Positions 12,629 through 64,000 are shown, counted from the first letter of the stretch. The stretch is 64,000 nt of DNA from an uncultured Planctomycetia bacterium (GCA_964634945.1 CAZWMG010000001.1:116825-180824), one strand, 5' to 3'. Made by a program: numbers and translations. The notes: generated from the sequence alone by a model not told the origin.

Positions 12629-12637
12629 TAACGCATG

Positions 12638-12674
12638 GCGGGACAGTAAGCTGGCCTACATCTTACTGTCCCGC
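12638..12674 (+). other. perfect 13-bp stem hairpin between spoVG and yraN
   Basis: gcgggacagtaag N11 cttactgtcccgc. No downstream T-run. Followed by GGAGG and the yraN TTG start. Confidence 0.5.
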
Positions 12675-12687
12675 TGGAGGAAAGGCA

Positions 12688-13041
12688 TTGGACAAAAAAA
12701 GATTGGGCAACAAGGCTGAATCACTTGCTTGTAAACTACTCAAGAATAAGGGCTTTAAAATTATTGATAGAAACTTCAGGTGTAGGTCCGGAGAGATAGA
12801 TATAATAGCTAAAGATAATAACTATATAACTATTATAGAAGTAAGAAGCAGCACTAATTATTCTTTTCATGACCCTCTCTGTTCCTTTACGCCATTAAAA
12901 ATCAGAAGATTAAGGGTATTAGCGCAAATATGGCTTAATTGCCATAATCAAGAGGATGCCTTTGTAAGGCTTGATATCATTACAGTTGTTTTCAATGCAG
13001 GAAACAATACTATAATAAGACATATAAAAGACGCTTTTTAG
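12688..13041 (+). CDS. yraN: YraN/UPF0102 family endonuclease-like protein (TTG start)
   Basis: G..AE..A..LL...GF.I..RNFR...GEIDIIA...N..ITIIEVR pattern. Immediately precedes comM as in many genomes. Confidence 0.65.
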   Translation: MDKKRLGNKAESLACKLLKNKGFKIIDRNFRCRSGEIDIIAKDNNYITIIEVRSSTNYSFHDPLCSFTPLKIRRLRVLAQIWLNCHNQEDAFVRLDIITVVFNAGNNTIIRHIKDAF

Positions 13042-13061
13042 CGAAAAAGGGGTATATTAAT

Positions 13062-14591
13062 ATGCTTGCAAATAGTAAATCAAGGACTATTTTTGGCGTG
13101 GCTTCACGCGAGGTCGACGTGGAGATTGATATCACGTCAGGGGTTAGGTGTTTTATTATAGTTGGGCTCCCGGATACCGCATGCCGTGAGTCTGCCCAAA
13201 GAGTAATAGCGGCGCTTAAAAACTCTGGCTTTAAGCTACCAAGCCTGCGCATTACTGTAAATCTTGCTCCTGCACACCTGCGAAAAGAAGGCGCTATGCA
13301 TGACCTGGCCATAGCTGTGACCATACTTGCCGCCTTGAATATAATTGAAAAAGAACGACTTGGTAATAAAGTATTTTGCGGCGAGCTCTCGCTTGATGGC
13401 ACCTTAAGACCGGTAAAAGGGATTCTATGCGTTGCTGATGACTTAAAAAAGCATAAGAATATAGAGCTAATCATACCCTCACAAAATATATCTGAGGCAA
13501 ATGCTGCCAAAGGCCTGCATTTCGTCGCAGCCTCCTCGCTCTCTGAGGTTGTAGAGTACCTTTCTAGCGGCACAGCCCCAATTCAAAAAACAACTCATAA
13601 AAGTAAGGTGTCCCTATCAAGCATTGATTCCCATGACTATTCAGATATAAAGGGTAATTATAGCGCCAAGCGCGCGATGGAGATAGCTGTCGCTGGTGGG
13701 CACAACATTTTACTAATAGGCTCACCCGGGGCCGGAAAAACCATGTTGGCAAAACGACTACCAACAATAATGGGCAAGCTAAGTACAGAGGAATCCATAG
13801 AAACAAGTAAGATTTACAGCATTTGTGGTCTTTTGTCAGACAAGGAACTGATATCAACGCCCCCTTTTAGAGACTTACACCACTCTGTATCTGATGCCGG
13901 CATGCTTGGTGGGGGCTCACATCATATACGCCCAGGTGAGGTAAGCCTTGCCCATAATGGGGTGCTTTTTCTGGATGAACTACCTGAGTTCAAGCGGAAT
14001 GTGCTGGAGGCGCTACGGCAGCCTATTGAGCAGGGCTTGATAAGGATATCCAGAGCAAATGCCTCCTTGAGCTACCCATGCCGCTTTATGCTAGTAGCAG
14101 CCATGAACCCATGCCCGTGTGGCTTTTTGACGCATCCAAAAAAGGTCTGCTCTTGTTCGCCGGGGCAGGTTCAAAGATATCTGTCGAAAATCTCCGGGCC
14201 TCTATTAGACCGGATAGATATGCATATTGAAATTCAGCCCATTAAATACGAGCAGATGATTGAAAGGACATGCGAAACAACTTCAGCAATAATAAAGACG
14301 CGTGCCAAAAACGCCAGATGCGTGCAAAATGAACGCTACAAAAACCACAGATACAAATGCAATGGAAAGCTACCGCATAGAGACATTGAGAACTATTGTA
14401 AAGTTTCTGATGAGGCATCTGAACTACTAAGAATGGCCATGTCTGAATTATTCATAAGCGCCCGTGCCTATGATAAGATCCTTAGGGTCTCAAGAACAAT
14501 AGCGGATCTTGACAATAAACCAATAATCGGAGCTGAACAGGTCTCAGAGGCCATAAGTTACCGCTGCCTTGATACTAAGGCCTGGCTCTAA
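13062..14591 (+). CDS. comM: YifB/ComM Mg-chelatase-like AAA+ ATPase
   Basis: N-terminal Lon-like S5 domain. Walker A GSPGAGKTMLAKR, Walker B VLFLDELPEF. C-terminal ChlI-like domain. Confidence 0.85.
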   Translation: MLANSKSRTIFGVASREVDVEIDITSGVRCFIIVGLPDTACRESAQRVIAALKNSGFKLPSLRITVNLAPAHLRKEGAMHDLAIAVTILAALNIIEKERLGNKVFCGELSLDGTLRPVKGILCVADDLKKHKNIELIIPSQNISEANAAKGLHFVAASSLSEVVEYLSSGTAPIQKTTHKSKVSLSSIDSHDYSDIKGNYSAKRAMEIAVAGGHNILLIGSPGAGKTMLAKRLPTIMGKLSTEESIETSKIYSICGLLSDKELISTPPFRDLHHSVSDAGMLGGGSHHIRPGEVSLAHNGVLFLDELPEFKRNVLEALRQPIEQGLIRISRANASLSYPCRFMLVAAMNPCPCGFLTHPKKVCSCSPGQVQRYLSKISGPLLDRIDMHIEIQPIKYEQMIERTCETTSAIIKTRAKNARCVQNERYKNHRYKCNGKLPHRDIENYCKVSDEASELLRMAMSELFISARAYDKILRVSRTIADLDNKPIIGAEQVSEAISYRCLDTKAWL

Positions 14592-15398
14592 GGGACACTC
14601 TTCGCAACACATCTATTTGCAATATGTTATACACTAATTAATTTAATAATCGACCTATATTAAAGGATTTACAATGATTCGTATTCCACGCAAAGACCAA
14701 ATTCAAGACACTCTTACCTACCACATATTCAATAGAGGTAATGCCAAGCTGGATGTTTTTCATGATAATAAGGATTGTGATTATTTTATTGGGCTCATAA
14801 AGACCTATGAAGATAGATTTAATTTATATATATACAATTGGGTCTTAATGAAAAATCATTTTCATTTTTTAGCATGCATTAATAATCCAAAATTTTTATC
14901 CAAATGCTTGGGGGGACTGCAGCAAGCATATACACAGTATCATCACAAAAAATGGAATAGCGCAGGTAGGTTATGGCAAGGAAGATTTAAGAGTCAACCG
15001 ATTCAAAATGATAGATATTTCTTTGAGTGCGGAAGATATATAGAAAGGAATCCAATGCGCGCCAAGATAGTTAAGCTTCCATGGGATTATCAATATTCTA
15101 GTTGTAAATTGTACTCATTAGGAATATCGGATTCTATAACAACGACAAACCCTGGTTATAATTCCTTTTCAAACACAATAGCTATAGAATCTCGACAAAG
15201 CGAATATAGGACATGGTTAATGAGTGGGGAGAATCGGAGTTTTGTCAACATGGATAGACCTGTAGGAAATGAAGATTTTATAAAAGGCTTATTGAAAATT
15301 AATGGTCGTCTAGTTGCAAAAAAGGCAAGACGTTCATTCAAAAATTAGTAGATTACTTAGTTCATAACTATCTATGAAATAAGCAGTTAAAAAGAGTG
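14588..15398 (+). mobile_element. REPtron-like unit: RAYT/IS200-family Y1 transposase gene bracketed by 13-bp inverted repeats
   Basis: AAGGGACACTCTT at 14588-14600 and its perfect reverse complement AAGAGTGTCCCTT at 15386-15398 flank the CDS at 14674..15348. Confidence 0.55.
14674..15348 (+). CDS. REP-associated tyrosine transposase (RAYT) / IS200-like Y1 HUH transposase
   Basis: YHIFNRGN...F, HUH motif MKNHFHFL, GRLWQGRFKS, RYIERNP, catalytic-region Y in DYQYSS. Characteristic of PF01797 RAYT proteins. Confidence 0.75.
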   Translation: MIRIPRKDQIQDTLTYHIFNRGNAKLDVFHDNKDCDYFIGLIKTYEDRFNLYIYNWVLMKNHFHFLACINNPKFLSKCLGGLQQAYTQYHHKKWNSAGRLWQGRFKSQPIQNDRYFFECGRYIERNPMRAKIVKLPWDYQYSSCKLYSLGISDSITTTNPGYNSFSNTIAIESRQSEYRTWLMSGENRSFVNMDRPVGNEDFIKGLLKINGRLVAKKARRSFKN

Positions 15399-22421: not shown

Positions 22422-22497
22422 TGGTGCCCCTACCGCGACTCGAACACGGCCACATGGTTTAGGAAACCACTGCTCTATCCATCTGAGCTATAGGGGC
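22422..22497 (-). tRNA. tRNA-Arg (anticodon CCU)
   Basis: Manual fold: acceptor GCCCCUA/UAGGGGC, D-stem GCUC/GAGC, anticodon stem GUGGU/ACCAU with loop UUCCUAA, T-arm CCGUG-UUCGAGU-CGCGG, discriminator A, encoded CCA. Confidence 0.85.
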
Positions 22498-48950: not shown

Positions 48951-49850
48951 TTATTGGGAAGGGGCCTGTTTTGTTATAACACCTTGGTGGCGTGAAATTG
49001 ACGGCGTAAAACCTGTCACCTTTATAGAGGTAAGTATTCCAAGAGCAATAAATGATATCCAGAAGAGTGAAGATAACAAGTAAAATAACGTGCTTTGTAA
49101 AATAGGCTTTTTGTCTTTCATGCCTTTAAGTGAATTGAATAGGCCTATTAACGCTAGAGCAAAAATAAATAGCATAACAATATTTGAAAGCTTTATTACA
49201 CCGAAAACCGAAAAGCTATCAGCTCTTAAAAATTCATTGAAGAATCGCATAAAAGAGTACAATGCTATCACACAGAAAAAAGTAGCGCCTTTGTACTGCC
49301 TTAACTTCTTGTATTGGATAAACATTGTAATAAAAATAGCAAGCGCGGCGATCGCCGCGTAAACTTGCGTAGGATGTCTGAATCCCGGCCTTGAATAAAC
49401 ATTAACTGCCCATGGCAGATTACATCGAAGCCCGAAACAACACCCATTTAATAGGCATCCGATACGTCCTATTCCACGACTGAGCATGAGAAAAGGCGCT
49501 ATGTAATCCGCGTTCTTTAAAAAAGATGTCATTGTTATAGCTGAAAAGATCCATAGGCTTATGAATCCTAATAATGGTACTCCTAAATACGCCATACCAG
49601 ACCTACTTATAATGGTATCTAGGGGGGCTGTGGGATAGTTTATATAGTTTACCAATACGCCAAATGCCCTTGCTCCAAAAACACCAAATATCGCAAACAA
49701 CGCTCCGACAATAAATAGCTGCAAGCGCGAGAGAGCAAAATCTTTAGGCCTAAAATAGACAGCGCATAATATAGATATTATATAACTAAGATTCAAACAG
49801 AGCGTCCACGCGTGTATATTAGAACTGCCTATAACAATATATGGATACAT
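48951..49850 (-). CDS. lgt: prolipoprotein diacylglyceryl transferase
   Basis: Lgt signature HPTQVYAAI and GRIGCLLNGCCFG. Polytopic membrane protein. Confidence 0.8.
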   Translation of the reverse strand: MYPYIVIGSSNIHAWTLCLNLSYIISILCAVYFRPKDFALSRLQLFIVGALFAIFGVFGARAFGVLVNYINYPTAPLDTIISRSGMAYLGVPLLGFISLWIFSAITMTSFLKNADYIAPFLMLSRGIGRIGCLLNGCCFGLRCNLPWAVNVYSRPGFRHPTQVYAAIAALAIFITMFIQYKKLRQYKGATFFCVIALYSFMRFFNEFLRADSFSVFGVIKLSNIVMLFIFALALIGLFNSLKGMKDKKPILQSTLFYLLSSLFWISFIALGILTSIKVTGFTPSISRHQGVITKQAPSQ

Positions 49851-49855
49851 ATTTC

Positions 49856-50434
49856 CTATTTACCCGCTTCATCAGACAAAGCACGGGCAGATAGAAACTG
49901 CTTTTTTACTCTCACCCGTGTAAAGAAAAATATTACCAGTAAAAGATAAAGTAAAGAGCTTATTCTTACAATTAGAGCTGTCTGATACAACTTCTTATAT
50001 ACTAATGCGGCATACTCTTCTTCTGTAAGATCATTATCCAGCCTCAACTGTTCAGGAATAGCTGTATAGCCGGCCCATATCCTCTCTTGTGAATCAGGTG
50101 CTGTCCTCATATATTCTATAGATTTATTACTTAACGGTATAGAGATTAGAGCCATATAGAGCAATTGTATAACTGTAAGGAGCAAGACCAGTCTTCTTGC
50201 CCAATCTCTTAGCCTGAACATGTTTACCGAACCTATTATAAATGAAATATTGCTAATTATTGAATAGACTATAATAAGAATAAGGGCCGCTCGCGGCAAG
50301 ATCTGAGAAAAACCAGCCTGTATGCTACCTGTTCCTAAAAGCCTAAATATACTTATGATTAGTATGGATAACGCAAAAAATACAACGCCTGCGGACCTTC
50401 CTTTGCGTCTAATCTTTAATTCTTCGTTATTCAT
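49856..50434 (-). CDS. hypothetical 4-TM membrane protein
   Basis: Four hydrophobic helices and no known motifs. 6 nt upstream of lgt. Confidence 0.35.
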   Translation of the reverse strand: MNNEELKIRRKGRSAGVVFFALSILIISIFRLLGTGSIQAGFSQILPRAALILIIVYSIISNISFIIGSVNMFRLRDWARRLVLLLTVIQLLYMALISIPLSNKSIEYMRTAPDSQERIWAGYTAIPEQLRLDNDLTEEEYAALVYKKLYQTALIVRISSLLYLLLVIFFFTRVRVKKQFLSARALSDEAGK

Positions 50435-50558
50435 ATATCCCCCATTTATTGGCGTTTCTATAATAAGTAATTAATTATAAATATACAGTATAATATAGAT
50501 TATATCAAGCGGTATTTCTATTGATATAAGAAAAAATAAGCCGCAGACAAAAGAACAA

Positions 50559-50948
50559 TTAATAGGCCTTATCCGCTATCTTATCGATAAGATCCCTGTC
50601 TCTTTTTTTTATCTTTTCGAACTGCGTTGCTATAAAACATATCTTCGGATAGGAATCTTTTTGTGGTTTCTTATTGCGGATTACCCTGCCGATACATCTT
50701 ATCGTATGCGCGGAAAAAGGAAATATAATTTTAAAATTAACCCGCATACCTGTTGTTAAATCATCATCGTAAGTAAATAACATGCCGCCGGCGCTGAGGT
50801 TACGCACTGTTACTATATCCCACTTACTAAAACATCTCCTGATGAAAACAAAGCTTACAGTCCTAAACCATGACATAAAACTTCTCTCTATCCTCCTATG
50901 TTTTCTCTTCTCCTCCATGACATACCCCCCCTTCGGTTGAATATCCAT
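50559..50948 (-). CDS. PilZ domain c-di-GMP receptor
   Basis: RRIER (RxxxR) and NLSAGG (NxSxxG). 129 aa. Start codon 21 nt downstream of the giant-gene stop. Confidence 0.6.
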   Translation of the reverse strand: MDIQPKGGYVMEEKRKHRRIERSFMSWFRTVSFVFIRRCFSKWDIVTVRNLSAGGMLFTYDDDLTTGMRVNFKIIFPFSAHTIRCIGRVIRNKKPQKDSYPKICFIATQFEKIKKRDRDLIDKIADKAY

Positions 50949-50968: not shown

Positions 50969-53900
50969 TTACGCGTTCTGTGCAACGAGATCATTTATTC
51001 TCTTAATCTCATCATTGTCTATAGGCTTAATCCTTATTGTCCCTGAGCCTGAATTCCCAAACATTGATTCCCAGTTTTCATTCGATATACCAATTTCAAT
51101 ACCTCTCTCGTTCATAAACGCGGCAAGTTGTTTAAATGGCACGCGGAATATTGCCAATACTACCTGTGATGCTGTCACTATATTATTTGCCGTACCAGCA
51201 GATTGTTCAACCTGTACGAATCTTGTCTGATCAGCGGTAATGGATGCAGGCTTATTGTAACGATAGACAATAGTAGCAGTACTTGCTTTCTTGAGGCCGG
51301 TTGTTACTGTTATGCCGTGCTCCTTAAGTTTACTTACTGCCTGGGCACTATTATCGCCATATACTGATATAGATACAGTCTCCTTTACATTATTAGGCAT
51401 CTTATTTATTATAACACCTAATGTCTCAGCAAGCATATCTGTAACTGTATCTGATTCCAGTACAAGAGCCTGTCCTGCTGTTATAGGCAGCTTGTAACCT
51501 TGTGTAGTAACTGTGTTAACAATATTTACCGCTGTTTGCGCTGTATCAAGGCCAAATTCCGAAACGTCAATAATGATGCCGGCAGACGCGCTCTTTGAAT
51601 CCGACACAGGCTCTGAACCGGTCTGTGTATATGATAGGCCCTTTTCAATGAGGCCTGAAGAAGACTGTTTCAATATATCTGGCGATGGCTTCTCTTCCGG
51701 ACTAATCTTAGGAGCATCGGTCGTTGTTGTTTGAGATACCGGTTCCTTACTACCTGATGTAGCCGCTGGCTGCTGTGCGTCTTCTCCCTGCTCTTTGCCT
51801 GCAGCAACATCTAATGCCTCGATATATGCCTGCATTATGAAATTATTCATATTAATTAGCTGAACGGATAAAGGCACATCTCTAACAAACTGCTTTTGTT
51901 TTAGCACCCCTTCTTTTTTGAGCCTTAATACCTCTCTCTGCGCTACAGGCTCAGCTTTTGCTCTTGCCGCTGCCTGCTGTGTTGATTGCGCCTTAGCATC
52001 CTCTAATCCATCTTCTACTGGTAAATCCTTTAATGCTGCTTCATAAGCCTTGCTAACCTTTTCTGCGGCTTTTGATAACTTAATGAACCTATTGAAAGCC
52101 CCATCAACTGCTTTTGGATTACCTTGGCTTGTTTTGTCTAATAATCCTGCGGCTACAAGCTGTGGCACAATAGCCTGTCTTGCTTTAATAGATGCCTTAT
52201 GCTCTTTCATATCGTAGCTTGGTTTTATGTTAAGAATATCTGAGAGCAGAGATGTAATCGCTGTTCTCATTTGCTCAGGACTATACTTATACTCACCTTT
52301 TACATCTTTTATACCATTTGCGATCTTCTCCTGACTATTTTTAAGGGTCTCTACAGCTTCCTTATATTCATCAGAAGCATTACCTGAGACTGCCTGATCT
52401 TCAAACTGCTCTATGGACTGCTCAACAACCTCCTCAATTATCTCATCAAAGGTCTTTCTGGTTCTAATGCCTTCTTCATTCACGTTAGTAAATGTATTTA
52501 ATCTGTATGCGTAATGGCCTTTGGCACCGCCCATCGAGTTAACGGTCTTTTCTCTTAAATAATCTACAGTCTCAAGGAACTCAGGGCTATCGTATAATAT
52601 CTTTGACATAAGCCCATCTACAATTATCTTATTCTTTATTTCATCCGCTAAATCTTTAGACAGAGAAGTAGTGAGCCATGATATCTCATCATTAAAATGT
52701 GAAAGTTCATGCAGCATCTGCTCCAGTATTAGCCAGCCGGATGCAATCTTACCGCTGGTTGCATCATGGTCTATCGCTGCTTTTGCGAATTTTATAAAGT
52801 CTCTTGATAGAGCTATTGTTGGCCGCGCTACTATGTTGCCTTCTTCGCTAAATATTACTACGCGCTCTGCCTGAGCCTTTTCAGCTACTGAACCGCCTGC
52901 TGTCTTCTTAACCATTCTAACCACAACACCATCCGGAGAGCCATTCTTAGCTGCATCCATTAGCACATCAAATAACTGTGTAAGCTCTTCACCGTTGCCT
53001 TTTTTTGATAAGTAATCTTTTATACTATCCATAGAACTGAAGGCAACATTTAATGCGTTAATAAGCTCCTTTATATCTCTTCTTGCTGAATTAGAAGATA
53101 TTGTCAGCTTATCACCTGCCCACTTTACTAGCACAGAATCAGTTGCTGTCTGCGCAAAGTCCCTGTAGACCTTTTGGACCTCTTCATAAAATCCTGATTT
53201 CATATCCAGGTTAGCGAGATGTTTTTTCATAAACTCATCTATATAAGCATCCTGGTTGTTAACCTTGTCCAATTTTATATCATGATACAACTCTGTTAGA
53301 TTAGCCTCAATATCCGCTTCATTAGCGCTTGAACTTCTTGCCTTTAAGAAACTTGTAATCCTAGCGTTTATATCTTTAACATTCAGATTGTGTATACTAA
53401 TATATGCTTTAGCATAAGAGGTTGCCGCTTCATTAAGTTCCTGATTCTTCTTCAGTAGGGGTTCCACAATCAATTCTAGTTGTTTATTGAGCTTTAATAT
53501 TTTAGCCTTTATTACCATGGATCTCTTCTTATCAACATCATCATCTAAATCAAGGGCCTGCAACTCTTCTTCTAGTGACTTCTTCTCTCTCTTAATGCGG
53601 TATATCTTTGACGCAAACAACAAGCGCTCTCTTTTTTTCTCAAGTTTTGTCTTTGCTCTTGCGTACTTAAGCGTTGCATTTGCCATGTCAAATAATTGGT
53701 CATTATCCGCGAAGGCATAGCTATCTTCTGTAAGCATCCTTGTATTATCAATATCCTGGGCAAATTCAATAGATATCGCTGCCTTTATCGCCAGATGAGT
53801 CATAACATCATCTCCCGCTATATCGCTTACCATTATGTCTATCTTCTCATCGGAGGGCTTTGCGACCTTAAACATTATTTGTTTAGCTCTAAATCTGTTC

Positions 53901-56900
53901 TTGAGCATACGTAGAGTCTTTTTAAGCTCCTTCTTCTTAGACTCTTTCTTCTGCTCCGCTATCCTATACTGCGTGATTGCTATGCGTTCCTCTAAATCAT
54001 CTATAGCGACCTTTCTTCTTAAATATTTAAGGAACTTTTCATTGCTCTTTATATCGCCTTTGTTATACGCAATTACCAATGCCTTTGCGAATTCTCGCCT
54101 TGCTGCTAAAGGTTCTTCTGTATTTAACAATGCCTTCTTAAGGTTTGTTTGAGTAAATTCTAAGCCCGGGAACTTTTTCTTCAAAGCATTATACTCTTTA
54201 GCAATCTCATATAAGCCATTAGCGTCAAAATCTTTTAAGGAGTTGCTTGTTCCTATTAGGCCTATTACGGATACTGCAATAGAGGCCTCAGAATCATCCT
54301 TTATGCTGCGGTCGTTATCCTTAAGCATCTTAACTATCTGCTGAAACTCTTCCGGCGGAAGCGCCATCTTAAGAGATATAATTTTTATAGCTACCTCAAG
54401 CACCATCATGCCTCTTACTGTAAGATTGTTATCATTATCCACCATATCGTTATCTCTCATAAATCTTACTAATTGCCCAACTGCAGCATTAGCATCTACG
54501 CTAGCATTAACAGTCCCTTCACCTTTCGCGCTCTCTATATCATCCTGAGCATCTTTTATAGCTGTTTTAAGAGCGATCTCAACCTCATCTACTGTAAGTG
54601 TTCTTTCCTCAACATCTTCATCCTGTGCTTCCAGAGTTCTTGCTGTACGTGCCTGGGCAGCTGTCAGGGTCTGCCTAAACGCTCCGGCAACATCGCCTGA
54701 GAACGATGGCAGTACATAAGGGATAAATCTTCTTGCGGCATTATAAAGCTCTGAATACGTTTCAGCATCCTTAAATGTACTCTCATATGCCTGCCCGGAC
54801 GACTTTCTCAGTATCACACCCTCGTATTCCGATAACAATGGCTTTAGTTCTCTTTCGACAATCCTTATTGATTCTGCTGTCTTAACAGATTCCATATCCT
54901 CCATAAGAGACTTTATAAATTCGACCCCAATGCTTGCGTTAGTATTGAATATCTCAGTTATCAGGGCCTCTGCATCCATAGGCTTATCCAATAGGTCGAG
55001 TGCCGCACTGCGCTGATCAGACTGCTTATCAAGTAGCTTAAGCAGATGCTTCTCAAGGACCTTTCCTTCTGATGTTTGCGCAGTCTCCGGGTTTTCGCTT
55101 CCGTATTTTCTAAGTAGATTTTTAGCTGCCTCAACAAGATAACCTTGGGCAACATCTGTTATAATGTAGGCATTTGATTTTGACATTTGTATAGCGCCTA
55201 CAACCTTAAGCATAAGCTGGGTAGCGGACTGAAAATCATTCTCAATAAACCCATCTATATCATCCTTAGAAGACGCGAACTTATCCAGAAGAGTCTTTGT
55301 ATTCTTAAATTCATCATTCTGCCTGTACTGTTCCGGTGATATCATATTGCTTAACTGAGTAAGGTTGCCCCTTAAGTACTCAAGGCGCTTTTTAAGAGAT
55401 TCTTTATTTACATAGATTACTCTTGTCGCTATATCTGATTCTGAACGTTGCACACGATAGAGCCCCTGTAGTAACAGATCTTCCGCAAGCTCATCAGCAA
55501 CTATATGTATATCAACATCACCGTTATAGTTTAATCCTATCAGGCCACCTTCATTTATGAATACAGCGTGTCCTCTTTGAGCCTGTTTTGCTATCTCATT
55601 TACATCGCCATCCTCATTAGATGCTACTATGTTATTCTCATCTTTCACAATGTATTTAACAATATCTTTATCCAGCCTATTCTGATCAGCGCCTAGGGCT
55701 TCTATCAGATCTTTTATGTTCTCTTCCTTTCGTTTCATGTTTGGATCATTCTTATCAAGTTTTTCTATCACAGAATTCTGCTCATCTATAATGCGTTGCA
55801 GCTTTTTATATATAGCATCTCTTAATCTCTTTCTTAATATGTCATCCCCCTTAATACGTCTTTCAAGCTCTTCCTGAGTACGCTTTCTCATATCTTCGTT
55901 AGCTGTATATATCGCGACACCACCTTGAGTGCGAAGCGACTCTATAGCACCGCTTACAATCTGGGCAATCAATACTTTTTCATCAGCATATTTACAAAGC
56001 ATATGGCTAGGATGTATCCTACCAAAAGTCTTATTATCTATCTCTAACTCTCTATATTCGCTCATTTTTTCATTTGCACTAGCTATCGCGCCTGGAAGCG
56101 CGGAATCATCAACACCGACAAGGTCAATCATCTTATAAACTATATCATTTCCATCACTATCTTTCGTAAATACCGGTATCTCAGAGCGCTCGAAATCAAT
56201 CTCAATTCCTGTTACCGCAGGAAGCATAGCAATTACCTCAAAGAACGTTCCTGAGCCGCCGGCAACATGCGCTCTTGAATTCATACCAAATATCTCGCGC
56301 AAAGTTGACTGCATGTTTGTCGCGTTGTAGGTAAGGCCTGTTACTAAGATCTCTTCATTATCTGTTATCTGCCTGTGTAGTTCTGCTATAGCACTATCGT
56401 CATCTGTATCATTTATGTATTTATTATGCTGTAATGCTATTGCTATAACATAACCCATATCCTGAAACATAGATGAATACTTTGCCCTGCCTTGCCCAAC
56501 AGGTACAATCTTCTTATCAGCTGTTACAAGGTAATCCTGCCCAATACGATGGTTGAGAGCCCTTAACACGCTCTCAACCTCAGACAGTTTAATGCCTTCC
56601 TTGGTAAGCTCGTTCTGAAGTTCTCTTGACGCATAAACAGCATCAAACTCTCTGTCATAGCATACCGCCATACCTGTATTCCTGTAGTTGCTTTTAAATA
56701 ACTCGACATCTCCTTTTAAATCTCTTATATTTAACTTCTTACCTTTCTTTGTCTCTAACACGCCTCCTTTAAATATCTTAAATATTTTCTCGATAGCCTC
56801 TAATTTCTCAGCTGTAACCTCTTTTTCAGCAAGACCACCTTCAATAAATGTATCTCGAACTTTCAGCACGCTATCAAATTCATCAATCCTTAAGATGTTT

Positions 56901-59900
56901 GTCTTAGCAACAGCGTTAAACAACTCATCATTTTCCGCATGCGCTATAGTATTCTGTAAATGGCCTCTTGCTTCACGGCTTATTATCACTACCTGATTAG
57001 GATCATTAAACGCCTCTGTTACCTTCTTATACGCGGCCCTCTTTCCTGCTTTTCCTTCTGCGGATGCATTTTTGAAATCATCTATCAGCTTGTCGCCGCT
57101 TACCATCTTAAGGCCAAAACCATGCAACAAGGTATATTGTGAATGCTCTAAGCCTTTATTTCCATCATCCTTATCAGATAGTGGATTTAAATACTTATCA
57201 ACTGCCTGCGGGCTTTCTAATATCACCATGCCAGCGAGATCGTTGCCTTTTATCAGACTCTCTATACACATCTCTGCTGCAAAAGCATATGTTTTACCGC
57301 CTGCCATTGATAAAGCACCGAATTTTCCTTCAAATAGACTCTTGATAAACTTCTGTTGCTTTGCACGTAATCCGATCTCCTTGTTGCTTAACGCTGACTC
57401 TCTGGCAGCAAGTAAATTAGCGATAGCAAGTCCAAATGCCAGCGCCTGAACATCATCAGTCGCGTGTTCTGTTTCATCTAGTTCAAGACAAGCTTCTTCA
57501 ACCTCATTTCTATTGCCTTTTATATCTGTCTTTGTTATTGTCACGCTTAGGCCTGTTGCGATATCTTTTACGCGATCAACAAAAGCCTTATACGCATCTC
57601 CTGAGCCCTCTGTAAGATTTTCGTATTCAACCTGTTTTTCATTCAGCTCAGACCTTCTCTCATTGATCTGATTCTGCAAAGTTGCAGCTTCTTTCTCTTT
57701 CGCCTTTTGCAGTGTCTTATTGCCATCGTTCCTTGCGCTTATTATCTCTTTTTGCAATTCATCAAAACTGGCAGTTAATTCGCTTATACCCTTTGCCATG
57801 TCTGCCATCTGATCTTTGAACAATACTATCTTCACTCTTGACTCACTATGTTTGCTGTCTGCTACATCAAGCAATTCCATTGCGCCGGAGGCTTCTTTCT
57901 GCACTGCATTCACAATAGCCTCTCCTGCTTTTTCCACAAAATCGTTCTGCTCCGGTGTTAAGGTTCTTGTTAGCTCAAGTTTTCTCAGCATCTGTTTTAT
58001 GAACTTGTTGTTAAATTGCTGATAGAATCTTCTCTTTTCAATTATCGTTTTCTGCTCATCTTCATTATTGGTTAGGCCTGCTACTATATAATCAAAGTCA
58101 TCCTGTCCGGATTCTGTATGTATCATTGCCTCGTAAAGGGCCTGACGTAGTATGTTCTTAACATAGGTATCTAATCTGGCAAAATCGAGGAATGAATCGA
58201 GCGCTGAATTTATATTAATATCATTTGCAGGCGAGGCTGCCTGAACAGCTGCTGCATTATCTATTATAGACTTCAGTATGGCTGATGTAGCTCTTGGATT
58301 ATTTTTGATAACCTGCACATATTCTTCAAATGACTCAAGCTCTAGCTCCTTCTTGGTTTCGCCATTAGCTTTAAAGCTATCTACCAATAGCCTGCTAGCT
58401 CTAGCAACGATCTCTTGTGTCTCTTCTTCAATTTGCGTAACTGTTTCCAGAGCCTGTTTTGAAGCTATCTCTGAGTCAACGTCTTTTAATGTACCGCTTA
58501 ATAACGCTTGCTCCAACATGTCTATACGATCAAGCGCATCAGAATCAACAAGCGATTTAAGATCTTTCTTATTCAATACGATCTCTTCAGTGAGCTGTTT
58601 TAACTCAACCAGAGACGCTAACCCGCCAAATTCAATCTCTGCTGTGTCTAAATTGATCTTTGATATCTTTTCTACCGCAATATCCGCAGCTTGCACTATA
58701 TTTTTGACAGATTCAGCTAAAGATGCCCTGGCTGCGTTATGCTTAATATCTTTTGCTGCCTTTGCTACGTTACCTATGACACCGGCTGCTGAAGTCGCGA
58801 AACGCGCATTGTACTGTGGAGATAGCTCAACATCTTGGCCGCTATCCTCTACAGAGGTAGTCATGTTTAAAGTGGTATTCGCGAATATGCTTCTTAAGCC
58901 TGTGCGCGTATTATCGATATCTACTTTTAGTGTCTTTATGTCTGATGCTGATGCATCGAGCTTCTGCTTCATTTGAGGCAAGGCCTGCTCTAATGTTGAT
59001 AATGCTAGCTCCATCTTTGCAGCAGCGTCAACCAGTTCTATTTGCTGCGCCTTAGTTGCTGTCTGTGAGTCTATAGCTTTTGCCTGAGCCGCAACCTGTT
59101 TAACAGCAACCTTTACCATGCCCACTGTTCTTGCCTGCGTAAGCTCGCCTGCAAAGGTCTCCTGAGCAGCATAATCCTCATATACACCTGCTATGCTTTT
59201 CTTTGATGCCTTATTAATAGATTCACACAGCTTTGTAATATTATTAGCCACCCTGGTAGCGCTATCTGTAAACTGCTTAACTGAAACACCAACTGATTTA
59301 CCATCAAGCACATCTGAAATCTCAACTACAAACTCCTGCAAACCTTCAGGCATCCAACTTAAAAACAATCTTGCCAGTATGACCTCTTTTATTGCCTCTT
59401 CATATATGCCGCCTACTATTCTACTTGAAAAGCCTCCCAATTTTCCCAACATAGTTGCTTCTGGTGCCTCAGCCAAATAAGCAAGCTTACCCTGTATAAA
59501 GCTTGATACAGCGCTAAATGATTTCGCGATAATCCTGCCTATGGTCTGAGGTAACCTAACTAGTGTTAGAAAAGTAATGGCATTAAGCGCGCCGTTAAGA
59601 AAGCTTCCGCCACTTATCGCACTTTTAAGAGTGGAATCTGCTGTGATACTAAACTTCATTGCCCAAGATGAACTTGTCCTTGCTGCAACATCCTTAAATG
59701 GGCCTGATACTCTATTTGATGTAAAGTTCGCTATCCTATGACCCAGTGCAACTAGGGCAGGGGAAAGAGCAGTAAATACCGCTGTAAAGAGTATTCTTTG
59801 CGGATTCAGGTTTTCAGCTAAGGCGTTAAGCACCGAACCTTTACCCATCTGTCGCATCGTTCCATAGATGGTTTTTAAGGCACCTGGCCTCATATTGGCT

Positions 59901-62900
59901 ACAAAATCATCTGTTATGCCAAACGTGTTAAGCCCAGCGCTTGCCATTGAACCTGCTAAATGTAATGATATGCTCATGCCATATGTCAGGTTCCAGACAG
60001 TAGCTATACCATGTTTGTACATATGTTTTGCCCATTTAGTTGAAAGGCTTGCGACTACTTTTGATGCCGCAATCAGCCTCTGAGAGGCTGCAGCCATTAT
60101 GCCTTCACCGGCAGCTGCCTTTGTTACTGCAGAAGCTACCTTTGTTGATGCTGTAGTTATCTTTGAGCCAACATAGGTAAGTGGTTTTGCCGCTATATTG
60201 AGGATTTTTGCAACAGCCTCAATAGACTTAATGCTACCAATTGTACGAGCTATAGAGGTAGTAGCTTTTAGCGCTATGTTTAAAACAGATTTAATGCCTC
60301 TTAATATGATCCCTCCCGCAGCAAGAAGCGCTATATCAATTAACATCTCTGCTCCTGCCAATGTATACTTGTAAGTGCTATCATTTTGTATCTTATACAT
60401 ATCATCTATGCTCGTTACAGTAAAATCTACATCAAAACTTTCTCCGTTAAGCAACGAAGCAACTGAGGCAGCAACATAGCCAATAGCAGAACCAAGATGA
60501 TATACTGCCCAGGAAACAGCAGCGCCCATCCTATATGCGAATAAGGCGCCTTCGCTAGCTGAATCCAATACGGATTGCTGGCCTGTACTAATATCGATAG
60601 ATGTCATCTGATATATAGTTTCGTTATTACCTGTAATATGCTGATACCAGTACTTTGTCTCTATGCTTAGACGTAATATGGATGTATCGGCATCATAACT
60701 GATATTGGCATTATCCTGGCCACTTGTAATAATAAAGCTATCATCAGATGTTCTTGTTGCTGTAACAAGCTCCTGATTGCCCTGCATATCAGTTAAAGTC
60801 TGCGAAGCTGTTATAAGCACGCCATCTCTTATATATGTGTAGCTCTTTAGCATTCCTGACGAGGTTATAACGCCGGTTGACGATGAAACAGAATTTACAG
60901 TTACGTTAATAATATCATTAGGTATAGCAATATCTGCCTGCATAGCAACGTCACCGGTTGTTTCGCCTGATGATGAATATGTTGTAACCGCAATATTCTC
61001 ATCTATGTACATACCAAGAACATCTGCTTGTTCCAGTAACTGCAACGCATTCATACCACTTAATAGTTCTGTGCTGACCTTATCTATTTGATCCTGTCTA
61101 TCTTGTCCTGTTAGCATGCAATCATAAGTAGCATCAACATATACTTCCGCAATTGTCCTTTGAAGAGCAGGGACTATTGTAGCGCTATCTTTCTCGTTGA
61201 GCTCTCCTATTGTCAAACCTAGCGCACTTAAAGTCACGTTAGGTGTGCTTAGATTTATTGATAGTCTATACTCTTTGCCAGTATATGTAAAATCTGTTAT
61301 CTTAATTGTGTGCCCACCACTAAGAACTGATAGTGCCATTAGGCTATCAGGGCTATCTGATATGAAGTTTATAGTTACGCTCAAACCATCCTTATCAGAG
61401 ACAATACCCGCACCTTTTTCTCTTGCTGTCTGGAATTGAATATTATATGATACTTCTGAGTTCTGTATATTATTCAGATACTTGCCAAAACCATCTTGCA
61501 TATTTTGCTTCTTTGCATCGATGCGTGCCTTACAATCCGCTATCTGATCTTTATCATAAAAGTCGCTATCTATCAGGGTCACCATCTGCAATAAGCCTTT
61601 GATCTCATCTGTTAAGGCATCGACTTCCGCTTCTAAATTCTCTAAAAATATTTGATTCATACATGCGGCGATTTTATAGGCTGACCAGAGACCTTTATCC
61701 TCCGCATTAACTTTATTATTAGCTAATGATTCGCTTACAAATTCATAAGGATTGTCAGGATCATCCGTAAACCAGCTACCGATTCCTTTTTGAGATTCAT
61801 ACTCTTCAAAAAGTTTTGTAGAAGCATTAACCAGGCTCTGCATATAAACGCTAAGCTTTGCAAGCTGGGCCGGATTCATATCAGCCAAACCTTGGCCATT
61901 TTCAATATCAATAAGCCCCTGTTCTGTAAGCGTATTAAGAAAAGCGTTTATGTCGCTTTCATCAAGCTTGCCCTGCGCAATACCACCTGCAAGAAGAGCG
62001 AATAAAGCGCCTATTGTTCCTGATATCTTCTGATCTGCGGGATTGCAAAGTATAGGCATCACAACAAAGCTCTGCTCATATTTCTCTGAATCCTTGTCTG
62101 TGGTATTTTTATATTTATCTATAGTCGCTAAAATCTCCACCTTTTCTTGTGCATAAGCGGCTCTCTGGGCATCTGATAGCTCATCTGAATCTGCTCCCAT
62201 AAGCCAGTCCTCCTTAACCATTAAATCAACTTCTATCTGCGAGAGCCTATCCTCAAGTTTTTCTATTAGCACACTATATGGTATGATTTTAGAAGAATCC
62301 ACTGCCTGAACAGCTATCAGATCGTTATCGCCATCTTTACCATACATGATAGTCGTTGAAAGCTCGATAAGCATCGTTATCAGCTTCTTAGCAGATGCTG
62401 ATATATTGATGTCATTGAGATACTCTTGAAGCTTCTGTTTTGACACAAACGTAATGATAGTTTTTGTAGCTTTATTGTAGCCGAGAACAAAATCTGATAG
62501 TGACATGCTTTCATTATGCCACTGCTGTAATGTTATTTTAGCCCCTTGATAAGATATTTCAGAGGTAACATCCAGGTTATCTTTTACAATAAATATCTTA
62601 TTTGTATTTTCATTATATCCGGTGCCTAATCCTATTGAGATATCTCCATCTTTCATCTCTATCTGCGTAACACCCGCTGATAATACGTAACCACCTGATT
62701 TCAAATCTTCGGCAAGTACAAATCTTCCTTGCTTATTAAGCTCTATTGTGAGGCTAGATAAATTATCTGCAAAATTAACCTCTTTTCCGTCAAATATAAC
62801 CTTAAGATTGTCTTTTGAATTCTTATCAAGCTTCGTCGTAAACAATATTCTCTTGCCTGTTGTTAGTGTTACATTAAATTCTCTGCCTGCAATCTTTGCG

Positions 62901-64000
62901 GTAAAGTTCATATTTTCTGCTATATTCAGCTTCTCTAATGGTGTAAAGTTTCCGTTATTATCCAGCACGCCTCGTTCAATATGTTTTTCGCTGTCAGGGC
63001 CGTTTATCTTTGACCTGACTACCAAGCTGTCACCACCCTCTAGTGTTGACTTGACATTAATCATCTCAAGGAATACATGCATTTTTGAATCATCACTAGT
63101 AATAATATTAATCGCTCCATCAATATCCGCGTCCCAGGATACATGTTGCACCATGCCTGAGTCATTCTTAAAAGTAAGTGAGCCAGACCTAAACTCTACG
63201 CCGCCTGCTATGCTCATCTTCATGCCCTGCCCGAATAAGCTAATCTGGCCAGTTGAAATATCTAGCTTAAACTTAAGTATTGTTGCCTCGCCTGACTCCT
63301 TATCTATATACGCACCGATACGCAGGCTTCCATCAGATAGCTTATTTATAACATGGAATTGTGAGTTTATATCTTTTGCGTTAAGATCCTTACTGCCACC
63401 TTCTACCTTGGGAACATATGTAAACTCCGCTTCTTTACCAAACTGGGCGTATATACCGGTATCATCTATTACAAATTTACCTTCTACGCCATTCAATTTT
63501 AGAGTACACTCGGCTATCTTTAAAATATCCGCTTGGTCTATTGTCTGGAACGTACCATTTTCAGTTATTGTTATATGAACTGTTATATCCTGTCCGTTCA
63601 CATCTAATTCTAATGAGTCATCAGAACCAAGGAATTGTGAAATTATCTTCTGGCTTGTAAGTTTTGTATCGTAGCTAATCTGGCCAAGTCCGGTAGGCTT
63701 GAAGCCGTCCTTTGTCCAGCTTACACTTGTGGTTTTAGTGGATTTTGAATTGTCAAAGGTGTATTTATCATATGTTACAACACAGCCTGCGGCGATACTC
63801 ATGTTCATGCCCTGGCCAAACAGAGTTATTACTCCACCGGATAATATATCAAGCTTGAACTTTAACGTTCCGCTAGCTGAGGCGCCTATTAGGGTTACAC
63901 CGTCTTTTGTGCTTGATATTGCCTTGAATTCAGAGCTTATAACTTTCGCATTATCCGGAGTGCCGCCTTTTGTCTCTTTATACCATAGCTTCGCTTCCGG
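50969..64000 (-). CDS. giant multidomain protein, >4,343 aa, N-terminus beyond window. N-terminal beta-rich repeats, hydrophobic Ala/Ser-rich segment, coiled coils, embedded SecA-like DEAD motor, distinct C-terminal domain
   Basis: Track ORF 50969..63808 (4279 aa). I extended the frame by hand to position 64000 without a stop (64 further codons, PEAKLWYKETKGG...), so the 5' end is off-window. Internal motifs are described in findings. Confidence 0.8.
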   Translation of the reverse strand, partial: PEAKLWYKETKGGTPDNAKVISSEFKAISSTKDGVTLIGASASGTLKFKLDILSGGVITLFGQGMNMSIAAGCVVTYDKYTFDNSKSTKTTSVSWTKDGFKPTGLGQISYDTKLTSQKIISQFLGSDDSLELDVNGQDITVHITITENGTFQTIDQADILKIAECTLKLNGVEGKFVIDDTGIYAQFGKEAEFTYVPKVEGGSKDLNAKDINSQFHVINKLSDGSLRIGAYIDKESGEATILKFKLDISTGQISLFGQGMKMSIAGGVEFRSGSLTFKNDSGMVQHVSWDADIDGAINIITSDDSKMHVFLEMINVKSTLEGGDSLVVRSKINGPDSEKHIERGVLDNNGNFTPLEKLNIAENMNFTAKIAGREFNVTLTTGKRILFTTKLDKNSKDNLKVIFDGKEVNFADNLSSLTIELNKQGRFVLAEDLKSGGYVLSAGVTQIEMKDGDISIGLGTGYNENTNKIFIVKDNLDVTSEISYQGAKITLQQWHNESMSLSDFVLGYNKATKTIITFVSKQKLQEYLNDINISASAKKLITMLIELSTTIMYGKDGDNDLIAVQAVDSSKIIPYSVLIEKLEDRLSQIEVDLMVKEDWLMGADSDELSDAQRAAYAQEKVEILATIDKYKNTTDKDSEKYEQSFVVMPILCNPADQKISGTIGALFALLAGGIAQGKLDESDINAFLNTLTEQGLIDIENGQGLADMNPAQLAKLSVYMQSLVNASTKLFEEYESQKGIGSWFTDDPDNPYEFVSESLANNKVNAEDKGLWSAYKIAACMNQIFLENLEAEVDALTDEIKGLLQMVTLIDSDFYDKDQIADCKARIDAKKQNMQDGFGKYLNNIQNSEVSYNIQFQTAREKGAGIVSDKDGLSVTINFISDSPDSLMALSVLSGGHTIKITDFTYTGKEYRLSINLSTPNVTLSALGLTIGELNEKDSATIVPALQRTIAEVYVDATYDCMLTGQDRQDQIDKVSTELLSGMNALQLLEQADVLGMYIDENIAVTTYSSSGETTGDVAMQADIAIPNDIINVTVNSVSSSTGVITSSGMLKSYTYIRDGVLITASQTLTDMQGNQELVTATRTSDDSFIITSGQDNANISYDADTSILRLSIETKYWYQHITGNNETIYQMTSIDISTGQQSVLDSASEGALFAYRMGAAVSWAVYHLGSAIGYVAASVASLLNGESFDVDFTVTSIDDMYKIQNDSTYKYTLAGAEMLIDIALLAAGGIILRGIKSVLNIALKATTSIARTIGSIKSIEAVAKILNIAAKPLTYVGSKITTASTKVASAVTKAAAGEGIMAAASQRLIAASKVVASLSTKWAKHMYKHGIATVWNLTYGMSISLHLAGSMASAGLNTFGITDDFVANMRPGALKTIYGTMRQMGKGSVLNALAENLNPQRILFTAVFTALSPALVALGHRIANFTSNRVSGPFKDVAARTSSSWAMKFSITADSTLKSAISGGSFLNGALNAITFLTLVRLPQTIGRIIAKSFSAVSSFIQGKLAYLAEAPEATMLGKLGGFSSRIVGGIYEEAIKEVILARLFLSWMPEGLQEFVVEISDVLDGKSVGVSVKQFTDSATRVANNITKLCESINKASKKSIAGVYEDYAAQETFAGELTQARTVGMVKVAVKQVAAQAKAIDSQTATKAQQIELVDAAAKMELALSTLEQALPQMKQKLDASASDIKTLKVDIDNTRTGLRSIFANTTLNMTTSVEDSGQDVELSPQYNARFATSAAGVIGNVAKAAKDIKHNAARASLAESVKNIVQAADIAVEKISKINLDTAEIEFGGLASLVELKQLTEEIVLNKKDLKSLVDSDALDRIDMLEQALLSGTLKDVDSEIASKQALETVTQIEEETQEIVARASRLLVDSFKANGETKKELELESFEEYVQVIKNNPRATSAILKSIIDNAAAVQAASPANDININSALDSFLDFARLDTYVKNILRQALYEAMIHTESGQDDFDYIVAGLTNNEDEQKTIIEKRRFYQQFNNKFIKQMLRKLELTRTLTPEQNDFVEKAGEAIVNAVQKEASGAMELLDVADSKHSESRVKIVLFKDQMADMAKGISELTASFDELQKEIISARNDGNKTLQKAKEKEAATLQNQINERRSELNEKQVEYENLTEGSGDAYKAFVDRVKDIATGLSVTITKTDIKGNRNEVEEACLELDETEHATDDVQALAFGLAIANLLAARESALSNKEIGLRAKQQKFIKSLFEGKFGALSMAGGKTYAFAAEMCIESLIKGNDLAGMVILESPQAVDKYLNPLSDKDDGNKGLEHSQYTLLHGFGLKMVSGDKLIDDFKNASAEGKAGKRAAYKKVTEAFNDPNQVVIISREARGHLQNTIAHAENDELFNAVAKTNILRIDEFDSVLKVRDTFIEGGLAEKEVTAEKLEAIEKIFKIFKGGVLETKKGKKLNIRDLKGDVELFKSNYRNTGMAVCYDREFDAVYASRELQNELTKEGIKLSEVESVLRALNHRIGQDYLVTADKKIVPVGQGRAKYSSMFQDMGYVIAIALQHNKYINDTDDDSAIAELHRQITDNEEILVTGLTYNATNMQSTLREIFGMNSRAHVAGGSGTFFEVIAMLPAVTGIEIDFERSEIPVFTKDSDGNDIVYKMIDLVGVDDSALPGAIASANEKMSEYRELEIDNKTFGRIHPSHMLCKYADEKVLIAQIVSGAIESLRTQGGVAIYTANEDMRKRTQEELERRIKGDDILRKRLRDAIYKKLQRIIDEQNSVIEKLDKNDPNMKRKEENIKDLIEALGADQNRLDKDIVKYIVKDENNIVASNEDGDVNEIAKQAQRGHAVFINEGGLIGLNYNGDVDIHIVADELAEDLLLQGLYRVQRSESDIATRVIYVNKESLKKRLEYLRGNLTQLSNMISPEQYRQNDEFKNTKTLLDKFASSKDDIDGFIENDFQSATQLMLKVVGAIQMSKSNAYIITDVAQGYLVEAAKNLLRKYGSENPETAQTSEGKVLEKHLLKLLDKQSDQRSAALDLLDKPMDAEALITEIFNTNASIGVEFIKSLMEDMESVKTAESIRIVERELKPLLSEYEGVILRKSSGQAYESTFKDAETYSELYNAARRFIPYVLPSFSGDVAGAFRQTLTAAQARTARTLEAQDEDVEERTLTVDEVEIALKTAIKDAQDDIESAKGEGTVNASVDANAAVGQLVRFMRDNDMVDNDNNLTVRGMMVLEVAIKIISLKMALPPEEFQQIVKMLKDNDRSIKDDSEASIAVSVIGLIGTSNSLKDFDANGLYEIAKEYNALKKKFPGLEFTQTNLKKALLNTEEPLAARREFAKALVIAYNKGDIKSNEKFLKYLRRKVAIDDLEERIAITQYRIAEQKKESKKKELKKTLRMLKNRFRAKQIMFKVAKPSDEKIDIMVSDIAGDDVMTHLAIKAAISIEFAQDIDNTRMLTEDSYAFADNDQLFDMANATLKYARAKTKLEKKRERLLFASKIYRIKREKKSLEEELQALDLDDDVDKKRSMVIKAKILKLNKQLELIVEPLLKKNQELNEAATSYAKAYISIHNLNVKDINARITSFLKARSSSANEADIEANLTELYHDIKLDKVNNQDAYIDEFMKKHLANLDMKSGFYEEVQKVYRDFAQTATDSVLVKWAGDKLTISSNSARRDIKELINALNVAFSSMDSIKDYLSKKGNGEELTQLFDVLMDAAKNGSPDGVVVRMVKKTAGGSVAEKAQAERVVIFSEEGNIVARPTIALSRDFIKFAKAAIDHDATSGKIASGWLILEQMLHELSHFNDEISWLTTSLSKDLADEIKNKIIVDGLMSKILYDSPEFLETVDYLREKTVNSMGGAKGHYAYRLNTFTNVNEEGIRTRKTFDEIIEEVVEQSIEQFEDQAVSGNASDEYKEAVETLKNSQEKIANGIKDVKGEYKYSPEQMRTAITSLLSDILNIKPSYDMKEHKASIKARQAIVPQLVAAGLLDKTSQGNPKAVDGAFNRFIKLSKAAEKVSKAYEAALKDLPVEDGLEDAKAQSTQQAAARAKAEPVAQREVLRLKKEGVLKQKQFVRDVPLSVQLINMNNFIMQAYIEALDVAAGKEQGEDAQQPAATSGSKEPVSQTTTTDAPKISPEEKPSPDILKQSSSGLIEKGLSYTQTGSEPVSDSKSASAGIIIDVSEFGLDTAQTAVNIVNTVTTQGYKLPITAGQALVLESDTVTDMLAETLGVIINKMPNNVKETVSISVYGDNSAQAVSKLKEHGITVTTGLKKASTATIVYRYNKPASITADQTRFVQVEQSAGTANNIVTASQVVLAIFRVPFKQLAAFMNERGIEIGISNENWESMFGNSGSGTIRIKPIDNDEIKRINDLVAQNA

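Follow-up and report, generated by a model that had tools for sequence, protein, structure and literature searches.

A conserved hydrophobic module upstream of a SecA-like ATPase in a giant protein of Candidatus Omnitrophota, with a possible role in membrane attachment

A giant protein is encoded on the minus strand of a 64,000-nucleotide stretch of DNA deposited as an uncultured Planctomycetia bacterium (GCA_964634945.1, CAZWMG010000001.1:116825-180824). This whole stretch is called the window below. The protein contains a hydrophobic module rich in alanine, serine, glycine and threonine (aa 1083-1487; 59348..60562, minus strand, as are all parts of the protein), which precedes a P-loop motor with SecA-like traits by about 680 residues. 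The favoured reading, to which we assign a probability of about 0.45, is that the module attaches the giant protein and its SecA-like ATPase to the cytoplasmic membrane. In this reading hA and hB, possibly with h0 and h2, make up one or two hairpins of weak hydrophobicity that would dip into or cross the bilayer. Lysine-rich amphipathic helices between hA and hB would rest on the anionic inner leaflet, so that both the charged linker and the SecA-like ATPase would stay on the cytoplasmic face. The helical character of the module is a prediction from a low-confidence model.

For the making, anchoring and use of giant proteins in Omnitrophota, the main published clue is a recurrent pairing of hydrophobic regions with scaffold-less SecA-like motors. 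The comparatively small family of five sequences described here has a discrete module of 400 residues and a motor that can be aligned and delimited, and this makes the ideas of anchoring and self-export testable.

The giant protein and its hydrophobic module

The open reading frame (ORF) of the giant protein (50969..63997, minus strand) contains 4342 codons and no stop, and it runs on to the window edge. Its product is thus cut at the N-terminus by the window and comprises at least 4342 aa. Residues are numbered from the first in-frame ATG at 63808, which was also the start in the ORF listing (50969..63808, 4279 aa); 63 more open codons are located upstream of it (63809-63997). A giant protein had been described in an earlier note on this DNA, made from the sequence alone, and is borne out; the protein is longer than 4279 aa. 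With the N-terminus cut off, this figure and any statement on the N-terminus or a signal peptide are unreliable. A lipoprotein reading of the apparent N-terminus (MNMSIAAGC) was rejected: the ATG at 63808 is internal to the open frame.

The composition of the module is anomalous. Its grand average of hydropathy (GRAVY) is +0.44, compared with -0.34 in the remainder of the protein. Alanine, serine, glycine, threonine, isoleucine, leucine and valine account for 66% of its residues versus 51% elsewhere. Acidic residues are depleted three-fold: Asp 2.5% and Glu 2.7% versus 7.6% and 7.7%, or 5.2% versus 15.3% together. Alanine (15.6%), serine (10.6%), glycine (8.4%) and tryptophan are enriched, tryptophan four-fold. 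The most hydrophobic segment of 405 aa in the whole protein begins at aa 1080 and has a GRAVY of 0.46. This is higher than in any of 500 whole-protein shuffles (mean 0.10, standard deviation 0.08) and about 4.5 standard deviations above their mean. The anomaly is real, and the earlier description of a hydrophobic segment of about 400 residues dominated by these seven amino acids holds at its coordinates. Uncharged runs were rejected as a signal in themselves; they are expected from the composition of the module. On the opposite strand, no ORF of at least 100 aa overlaps 59350-60560.

All four peptides quoted in the earlier note are present in the minus-strand translation: YKYTLAGAEMLIDIALLAAGGIILRGI at aa 1146-1172 (60293-60373), ILFTAVFTALSPALVALGH at aa 1339-1357 (59738-59794), LNGALNAITFLTLVRLPQTI at aa 1404-1423 (59540-59599) and KITTAS...VVASL at aa 1216-1255 (60044-60163). 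The first three had been presented as uncharged. This is correct for the second only; the first contains a lysine, E1154, D1158 and an arginine, and the third contains R1418. The fourth had been offered as an amphipathic run. Its hydrophobic moment is weak (0.06-0.40), and the amphipathic part is found at aa 1174-1213 instead, with a moment of ~0.5. The mean hydrophobic moment of the linker at aa 1174-1265 is matched by only ~1% of shuffles.

Relatives and evolution of the family

An exhaustive phmmer search with aa 1000-1600 against 1.84 billion representative proteins yielded exactly four relatives, P0001 to P0004. All are giant or truncated proteins, and one (P0001) is syntenic. The module occurs in every relative and is therefore a conserved, family-specific domain, which supports the earlier idea of a module. 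No internal duplication was detected in it, nor any similarity to the transmembrane (TM) cluster upstream in P0001 or to the TM domain encoded at the L088 locus of CP070780.1 (see below).

P0001 comprises 6691 aa (E=1e-82) and aligns with aa 61-4279 of the window protein at 36% identity. Its ORF, of at least 6757 aa, is itself ended by the contig end. The P0001 locus (L085) and the window share the gene order giant, PilZ, an ORF of ~190 aa, Lgt, GroES/EL, TPR-peptidase, IMPDH and DnaE. GroEL and IMPDH are 91% identical between the two loci and DnaE is 80% identical. The syntenic neighbours are thus far better conserved than the giant protein, which evolves very fast. Within the giant protein, identity to P0001 is highest in the motor (50-65%); the second half of the module (46-47%) is above the protein average of 38%. 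The part of P0001 upstream of the alignment (aa 1-1040; L085 199-3320) carries YD/RHS-like repeats, a TM cluster and Trp-rich amphipathic repeats. The TM cluster (aa 690-780) is unambiguous, with Kyte-Doolittle hydropathy (KD) up to 2.83, and indicates that the family is membrane-bound in any case.

P0002 (1707 aa) originates from CP070780.1, where the module resides in an ORF of its own, which has 1691 aa and stops short of the motor. At this locus (L088) the module homolog (10183-15258, plus strand) is divergently paired with the gene of a 2842-aa protein (983-9511, minus strand). The latter has HEAT repeats, a PF07517 SecA_DEAD domain and a polytopic TM domain with ~12 strong TM helices. 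This pairing of genes raises the possibility of a functional link between module and SecA-like motor even where separate genes encode them. P0003 (2342 aa) breaks off at the Walker A motif, and P0004 has 5328 aa.

The relatives surfaced only in the exhaustive HMMER run. Word-indexed homology searches with the module, the motor and the module alignment returned nothing. Scans of genome contigs with the module, and of metagenome contigs with the module and motor alignments, revealed no relatives. Exact-protein matches were absent for the giant and PilZ proteins, and GroEL was found on short Logan contigs only. A tblastn of the giant protein against 84 loci centred on GroEL, those of the closest Omnitrophota genomes among them, gave no match; GTDB representatives therefore lack the gene at that position. 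The giant protein matched nothing in Pfam, PHROGs, NCBIfam or PDB sequences. For the module, sequence and profile searches of Pfam, PHROGs, NCBIfam and PDB gave no meaningful match, and all five module sequences were without match in Pfam and PHROGs. The module is a distinct orphan domain: a useful, tractable handle on the giant proteins of Omnitrophota, and no surprise to a specialist.

Anatomy of the module

The anatomy was read from an alignment of the window protein with P0001 to P0004. The first helix, h0 (aa 1094-1122; 60443..60529), consists of 29 uncharged residues with a KD of 1.11 and a range of 0.39-1.57 among the homologs. A loop with a conserved SIDxMYK follows (aa 1123-1148; 60365..60442), which is neutral to acidic across the family. 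Helix hA (aa 1149-1173, TLAGAEMLIDIALLAAGGIILRGIK; 60290..60364) reaches a KD peak of 1.89 and contains the motif AExxIDIxLL with E1154 and the family-invariant D1158. The Lys/Arg-rich amphipathic linker behind it (aa 1174-1265; 60014..60289) has 13 K+R and 2 D+E. Among the homologs it is between 26 and 117 aa long, and its strongest amphipathic helices are located at aa 1174-1213. Next is h2 (aa 1266-1299; 59912..60013), an uncharged stretch of 34 residues with a conserved WNLTYxMS and a KD of 0.68.

The alignment then shows a loop with the conserved motif MRPGxxKT...QMGxGSVL (aa 1300-1338; 59795..59911). It leads to hB (aa 1339-1357, ILFTAVFTALSPALVALGH; 59738..59794), which has a KD of 1.76, a Goldman-Engelman-Steitz (GES) trapezoid value of 1.61 and the motif LFTAVFTALxP. 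A mid-helix proline or glycine is conserved in hB, and a K/R-rich flank follows in all five sequences. By hydropathy scales and conservation, hB is the best TM candidate of the module. The uncharged helix h4 (aa 1396-1417; 59558..59623) falls where the alignment is poor and rich in indels. At its C-terminal edge, the module carries its most conserved motif, YEExxKExILARLFLSWxPxxxQEFxVEFSDILDG (aa 1468-1504; 59297..59407). The invariant residues of the family are thereby defined: D1158, the MRPG/QMGxGS loop, the hB proline and the YEE...SDILDG motif.

Module and motor are connected by a charged linker rich in Ala, Ser, Lys and Glu (aa 1505-2100; 57509..59296). Its identity to P0001 is 21-37%, and both of its ends are predicted to be helical.

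Membrane association of the module

Several properties of the module argue for contact with a membrane. Both hA and hB exceed a KD of 1.6, as do their counterparts in P0001, P0002 and P0004; the family averages are 1.75 and 1.69, respectively. P0004 is still more hydrophobic: its h0 has a KD of 2.01 and its hB a Wimley-White octanol sum of -9.0. The net charge of the loops alternates in all five sequences, with +2 to +16 after hA, +3 to +7 after hB and -4 to +2 in the intervening loops. This alternation fits the positive-inside rule and would place the C-terminal ATPase in the cytoplasm. Tyrosine, tryptophan and lysine are found at helix ends (STYKY-hA and KWAKHMYK...WNLTY-h2). The conserved central proline or glycine of hB and the four-fold enrichment of tryptophan point the same way.

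A second group of results weighs against attachment to the membrane. Only two helices of the module, hA and hB, reach a KD of 1.6. Shuffles of the module average 2.5 windows of at least 1.6, and the probability of two or more is 0.84; two is chance level. The variance of 19-residue KD averages has a z of -0.9 in the module and of -0.5 to -1.7 in the four homologs. By the same measure, soluble parts of the giant protein have -0.5 to -2.4 and the polytopic domain of the 2842-aa L088 protein has +5.0. The hydropathy of the module is not segregated into the blocks of a polytopic domain. Simple sums on the Hessa biological scale come to +3.3 to +6.3 kcal/mol for h0-h4, compared with -1.5 to +1.1 for the TM helices of the L088 protein. 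In a TopPred-like GES scan, only hB (1.61) falls into the true-TM range of 1.6-2.2, and a buried strand of the ATPase core has a GES of 1.37, level with h0, h2 and h4. Helix hA bears a conserved Glu and the invariant Asp. An AlphaFold2 model from a shallow alignment is helical throughout the module, has a mean pLDDT (predicted local distance difference test) of 35 and is uninformative; it was not used for a fold search.

The module is much less membrane-like than a standard multi-pass domain. We read it as membrane-associating, with no more than one or two weak spans and with cationic amphipathic helices lying on the surface, and not as a classical polytopic domain.

The strongest competitor is a soluble, Ala-rich, all-helical domain whose hydrophobic helices form a core or an interface and have no role at a membrane. 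We consider this doubtful. In its favour, hydropathy is spread as evenly as in the soluble parts of the giant protein, TM-like windows are at chance level, the energies on the biological scale are unfavourable and a core strand of the ATPase scores level with most candidate helices. Invariant charged or polar residues in and between the helices (D1158, K1312, QMGxGS and YEExxKE...EFxVE) point in the same direction. However, a GRAVY of +0.44 across 400 residues with 5% acidic residues is generally unusual for a soluble domain. The conserved K/R excess in alternate loops and the aromatic residues at the helix ends are also at odds with it, and membrane anchoring is strongly expected for this protein class.

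The downstream motor

Downstream of the module is a two-RecA ATPase of superfamily 2 (SF2)/SecA-like type (aa ~2130-2810; 55379..57421), delimited by motifs, fold and conservation. It has a Walker A motif MAGGKTYAF (aa 2168), a DExD motif RIDEFDSVL (aa 2307) and a motif III GGSGT (aa 2517). GGKT (2170-2173), DEFD (2309) and GGSGT (2517) are invariant. Motifs II and III are ~205 aa apart. This spacing is like that of SecA, which has its preprotein-binding domain inserted between motifs II and III, and unlike that of SF2 helicases, which have ~30 residues there.

The motor has no sequence or profile match in Pfam or PDB. PF07517 was hit neither by the whole protein (E<=0.1) nor by three motor sequences (E<=10). 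When the motor was aligned by hhalign with E. coli SecA and with a profile of three SecA sequences, only the Q/Walker A region aligned (P=0.014). The E. coli SecA query sequence was validated against PDB 2fsf (1891 bits). A restricted hhalign brought the stem of the preprotein-binding domain (PPXD) into register (DYLVT..KIVPVG..GRAKY..FQD / DYIVK..VIIVDEHTGR....WSD; P=0.004), and the two local matches are co-linear. The Walker A region of the motor also matches the PF07517-positive L088 protein (E=7e-4), which in turn is similar to E. coli SecA (BLAST 2e-11). Foldseek with the AlphaFold2 model of the motor (pLDDT 49) retrieved SecA 3jv2_B (E=2e-3, probability 0.77, TM-score ~0.17); INO80/SWR1 was also matched. 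Over its whole length, the motor is not significantly similar to E. coli SecA: the hhalign probability is at most 8.5%, and Smith-Waterman scoring against shuffles gives z 0.4.

Fold and motif evidence provides good support for an SF2-type two-RecA ATPase. On the same evidence, the designation SecA-like is plausible but unproven. The earlier suggestion of a SecA-like motor downstream of the module stands as far as the P-loop motor, the SecA-type order of motifs and the local hhalign matches are concerned, and lacks a sequence match in Pfam or PDB.

In comparison with canonical SecA (E. coli P10408; PDB 2fsf, 3bxz and 3jv2), the motor shares the order of Q/Walker A, DExD, an insert of ~200 aa at the PPXD position, motif III and a second RecA domain. 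The in-register local matches at Walker A and at the PPXD stem, DY[IL]V...G[RK]...D, are further common traits. It differs in that phmmer and hmmsearch against PDB, hhalign and Smith-Waterman found no significant global similarity, and in that HSD, HWD and the C-terminal linker were not detected. The motor is located in the middle of a giant protein, and SF2 helicases score as well as SecA in the fold comparison.

Export and pore formation

The module might act on a membrane other than that of the producer. It would then be a conditionally inserting pore-forming or translocation domain that targets a prey or host membrane. This is unlikely. Its marginal hydrophobicity, the conserved acidic AExxID and the cationic amphipathic surroundings are generally regarded as the signature of switching domains. 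Omnitrophota are inferred to be episymbionts or predators, and an action on host surfaces has been suggested for their giant ORFs (PMC10066038). The very fast evolution, with 36% identity versus 91% for GroEL in the syntenic relative, would also suit this role. Yet none of the pore-forming or translocator families searched is homologous, and nothing points to secretion or processing. The module sits in the middle of a chain exceeding 4300 aa and directly precedes an ATPase that requires cytoplasmic ATP, and the amphipathic linker is its least conserved part and absent in P0003.

Colicin pore-forming domains, the diphtheria toxin T domain and the delivery regions of large clostridial toxins offer a functional analogy only. 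They share with the module marginally hydrophobic acidic helices amid cationic amphipathic helices. They differ by the lack of any sequence or profile similarity, and the module is twice as long, in mid-protein position and shows no evidence of release.

A conduit or insertase built into the chain would assign the module a part in export: it would export its own N-terminal region with the SecA-like motor of the same chain. We regard this as very unlikely. Of the four members whose sequence extends far enough for a judgement, three combine module and motor in a single chain (P0003, which ends at Walker A, is too short). In CP070780.1 the ORF with a motor-less module divergently adjoins the gene of a SecA_DEAD and multi-TM protein, and self-export has already been proposed for SecA-like domains of Omnitrophota giants. 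However, Pfam revealed no SecY or YidC similarity at the thresholds used. The weak hydrophobicity, the missing polytopic pattern and the ~680 residues of poorly conserved linker also argue against a conduit, for which the case is purely inferential. In a wider form, module and SecA-like ATPase would be a self-contained, SecYEG-independent device for export or insertion. The N-terminal region of the protein might be threaded through or alongside the module, or the module might be driven into a prey membrane. We infer only a slim chance for such a device.

An origin of the segment from a mobile element, as a phage tape-measure-like or translocator-like part of a type III secretion system (T3SS), is effectively refuted: beside a superficial Ala/Gly/Ser/Lys-rich hydrophobic composition, the giant protein and the five module sequences have no match in PHROGs or Pfam, megablast found no phage or plasmid match, and the neighbours are DnaE, aminoacyl-tRNA synthetases, GroEL and Lgt in a chromosomal synteny kept in the relative. 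T3SS translocators (IpaB/SipB/YopB) and phage tape measures resemble the module in having helices that adjoin one or two hydrophobic segments, rich in Ala, Gly and Ser. The resemblance to tape measures and to translocators of T3SS or type V secretion systems that the earlier note had seen did not hold up in sequence and profile searches of Pfam, PHROGs, NCBIfam and PDB. For the T3SS translocators (IpaB/SipB/YopB/SseC), there is no Pfam match, and none of the 23 scanned window proteins is a T3SS component. For the tape measures, PHROGs and Pfam gave no match to a tape-measure protein, and no phage genes were found among the same 23 proteins.

Comparison with giant proteins of Omnitrophota

The host chromosome is that of a Candidatus Omnitrophota, based on the best matches of GroEL. 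The window GroEL is 79% identical to that of Candidatus Omnitrophota bin81 (CP070655.1), and most of the next-best matches are metagenome-assembled genomes of Omnitrophota.

Omnitrophota are known for giant ORFs (PMC10066038), and among these for proteins in which TM regions are joined to divergent SecA_DEAD domains (10.1101/2023.11.21.568195; 10.64898/2026.06.07.730766). A signal peptide or TM helices are present in ~94% of the Omnitrophota proteins of at least 10,000 aa (10.64898/2026.06.07.730766). For the scaffold-less SecA-like domains, anchoring by adjacent TM regions has been proposed (West-Roberts et al. 2023, 10.1101/2023.11.21.568195). The cut-offs for giants were set at >=10,000 aa (Nielsen & Lui 2026, 10.64898/2026.06.07.730766) and >30,000 aa (West-Roberts et al., 10.1101/2023.11.21.568195).

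The protein described here belongs to the same phylum and is likewise a very long, poorly annotated and fast-evolving ORF. It also has a hydrophobic, predicted helical region and a putative SecA-type motor without scaffold and wing domains. It differs in several respects. Its length of at least 4342 aa, and of at least 6757 aa in the ortholog (both cut), compares with cut-offs of 10,000 and 30,000 aa. The motor is below every threshold of Pfam PF07517. The PF07517-positive L088 protein has a polytopic cluster that is far more TM-like than the module, and the module has only four detectable relatives among the 1.84 billion representative proteins. The protein probably belongs to the broad class of Omnitrophota giants that pair hydrophobic regions with divergent SecA-like motors, though outside PF07517. 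Catalogues based on Pfam and on length miss such divergent members of the class.

Other parts of the giant protein

The N-terminal region (aa 1-1082; 60563..63808) aligns to aa 2585-3516 of P0001 and has no database match. Only its end was modelled, and aa 1000-1068 form beta strands in the low-confidence model. A segment at 63820-63900 (aa -30 to -1), LKFKLDILSGGVITLFGQGMNMSIAAG...SVSW, is repeated at aa 178-225 as LKFKLDISTGQISLFGQGMKMSIAGG...HVSW; aa 178-205 of this copy correspond to 63190-63280. This suggests that the N-terminal region is built of ~190-aa repeat units. A BLAST self-comparison did not reveal repeats of greater length. A further uncharged hydrophobic segment, KISGTIGALFALLAGGIAQGK, is located at aa 594-614 (61967-62029), with a GES of 1.56 and a KD of 1.47. 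The stretch in which it lies shows little conservation with P0001 (10% identity).

In the C-terminal half, an HExxH motif occurs at aa 3700-3704 (52697-52711). It is HELSH here and in P0004 and HEMAH in P0001. The surroundings (~52200-53100) are among the best-conserved stretches of this half, with 57-58% identity to P0001. From its sequence, the site could be metalloprotease-like; it has no Pfam match. The protein ends in a conserved C-terminal domain of ~200 aa (aa 4080-4279; 50972-51571), and the end ...IRIKPIDN..I.RIN.LV.QNA is found in all three full-length relatives.

Genomic context

Directly downstream of the giant gene is a PilZ-domain gene (50559..50948, minus strand), which is syntenic in the ortholog locus L085. 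The PilZ gene, the ~190-aa gene and Lgt follow the giant gene in the window (48951-50948) and in L085 (20394-22176). Their products are just 43-55% identical between the two loci, compared with 91% for GroEL and IMPDH; these three genes thus evolve fast alongside the giant gene.

Other genes of the window encode DnaE, HisRS, AspRS, GlyRS alpha and beta, PPDK, GroEL, Lgt, IMPDH and an AddA-like helicase-nuclease. The sole RNA gene found is a tRNA-Arg(CCT) at 22422-22497. A megablast of the window matched no phage or plasmid record. The window is an ordinary housekeeping part of a bacterial chromosome, neither a phage nor a secretion island. Nearly all of its genes are on the minus strand, and the GC skew is negative over 1-64000. 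The cumulative GC skew declines monotonically except for a flat part at 12-16 kb, which is consistent with a single replichore.

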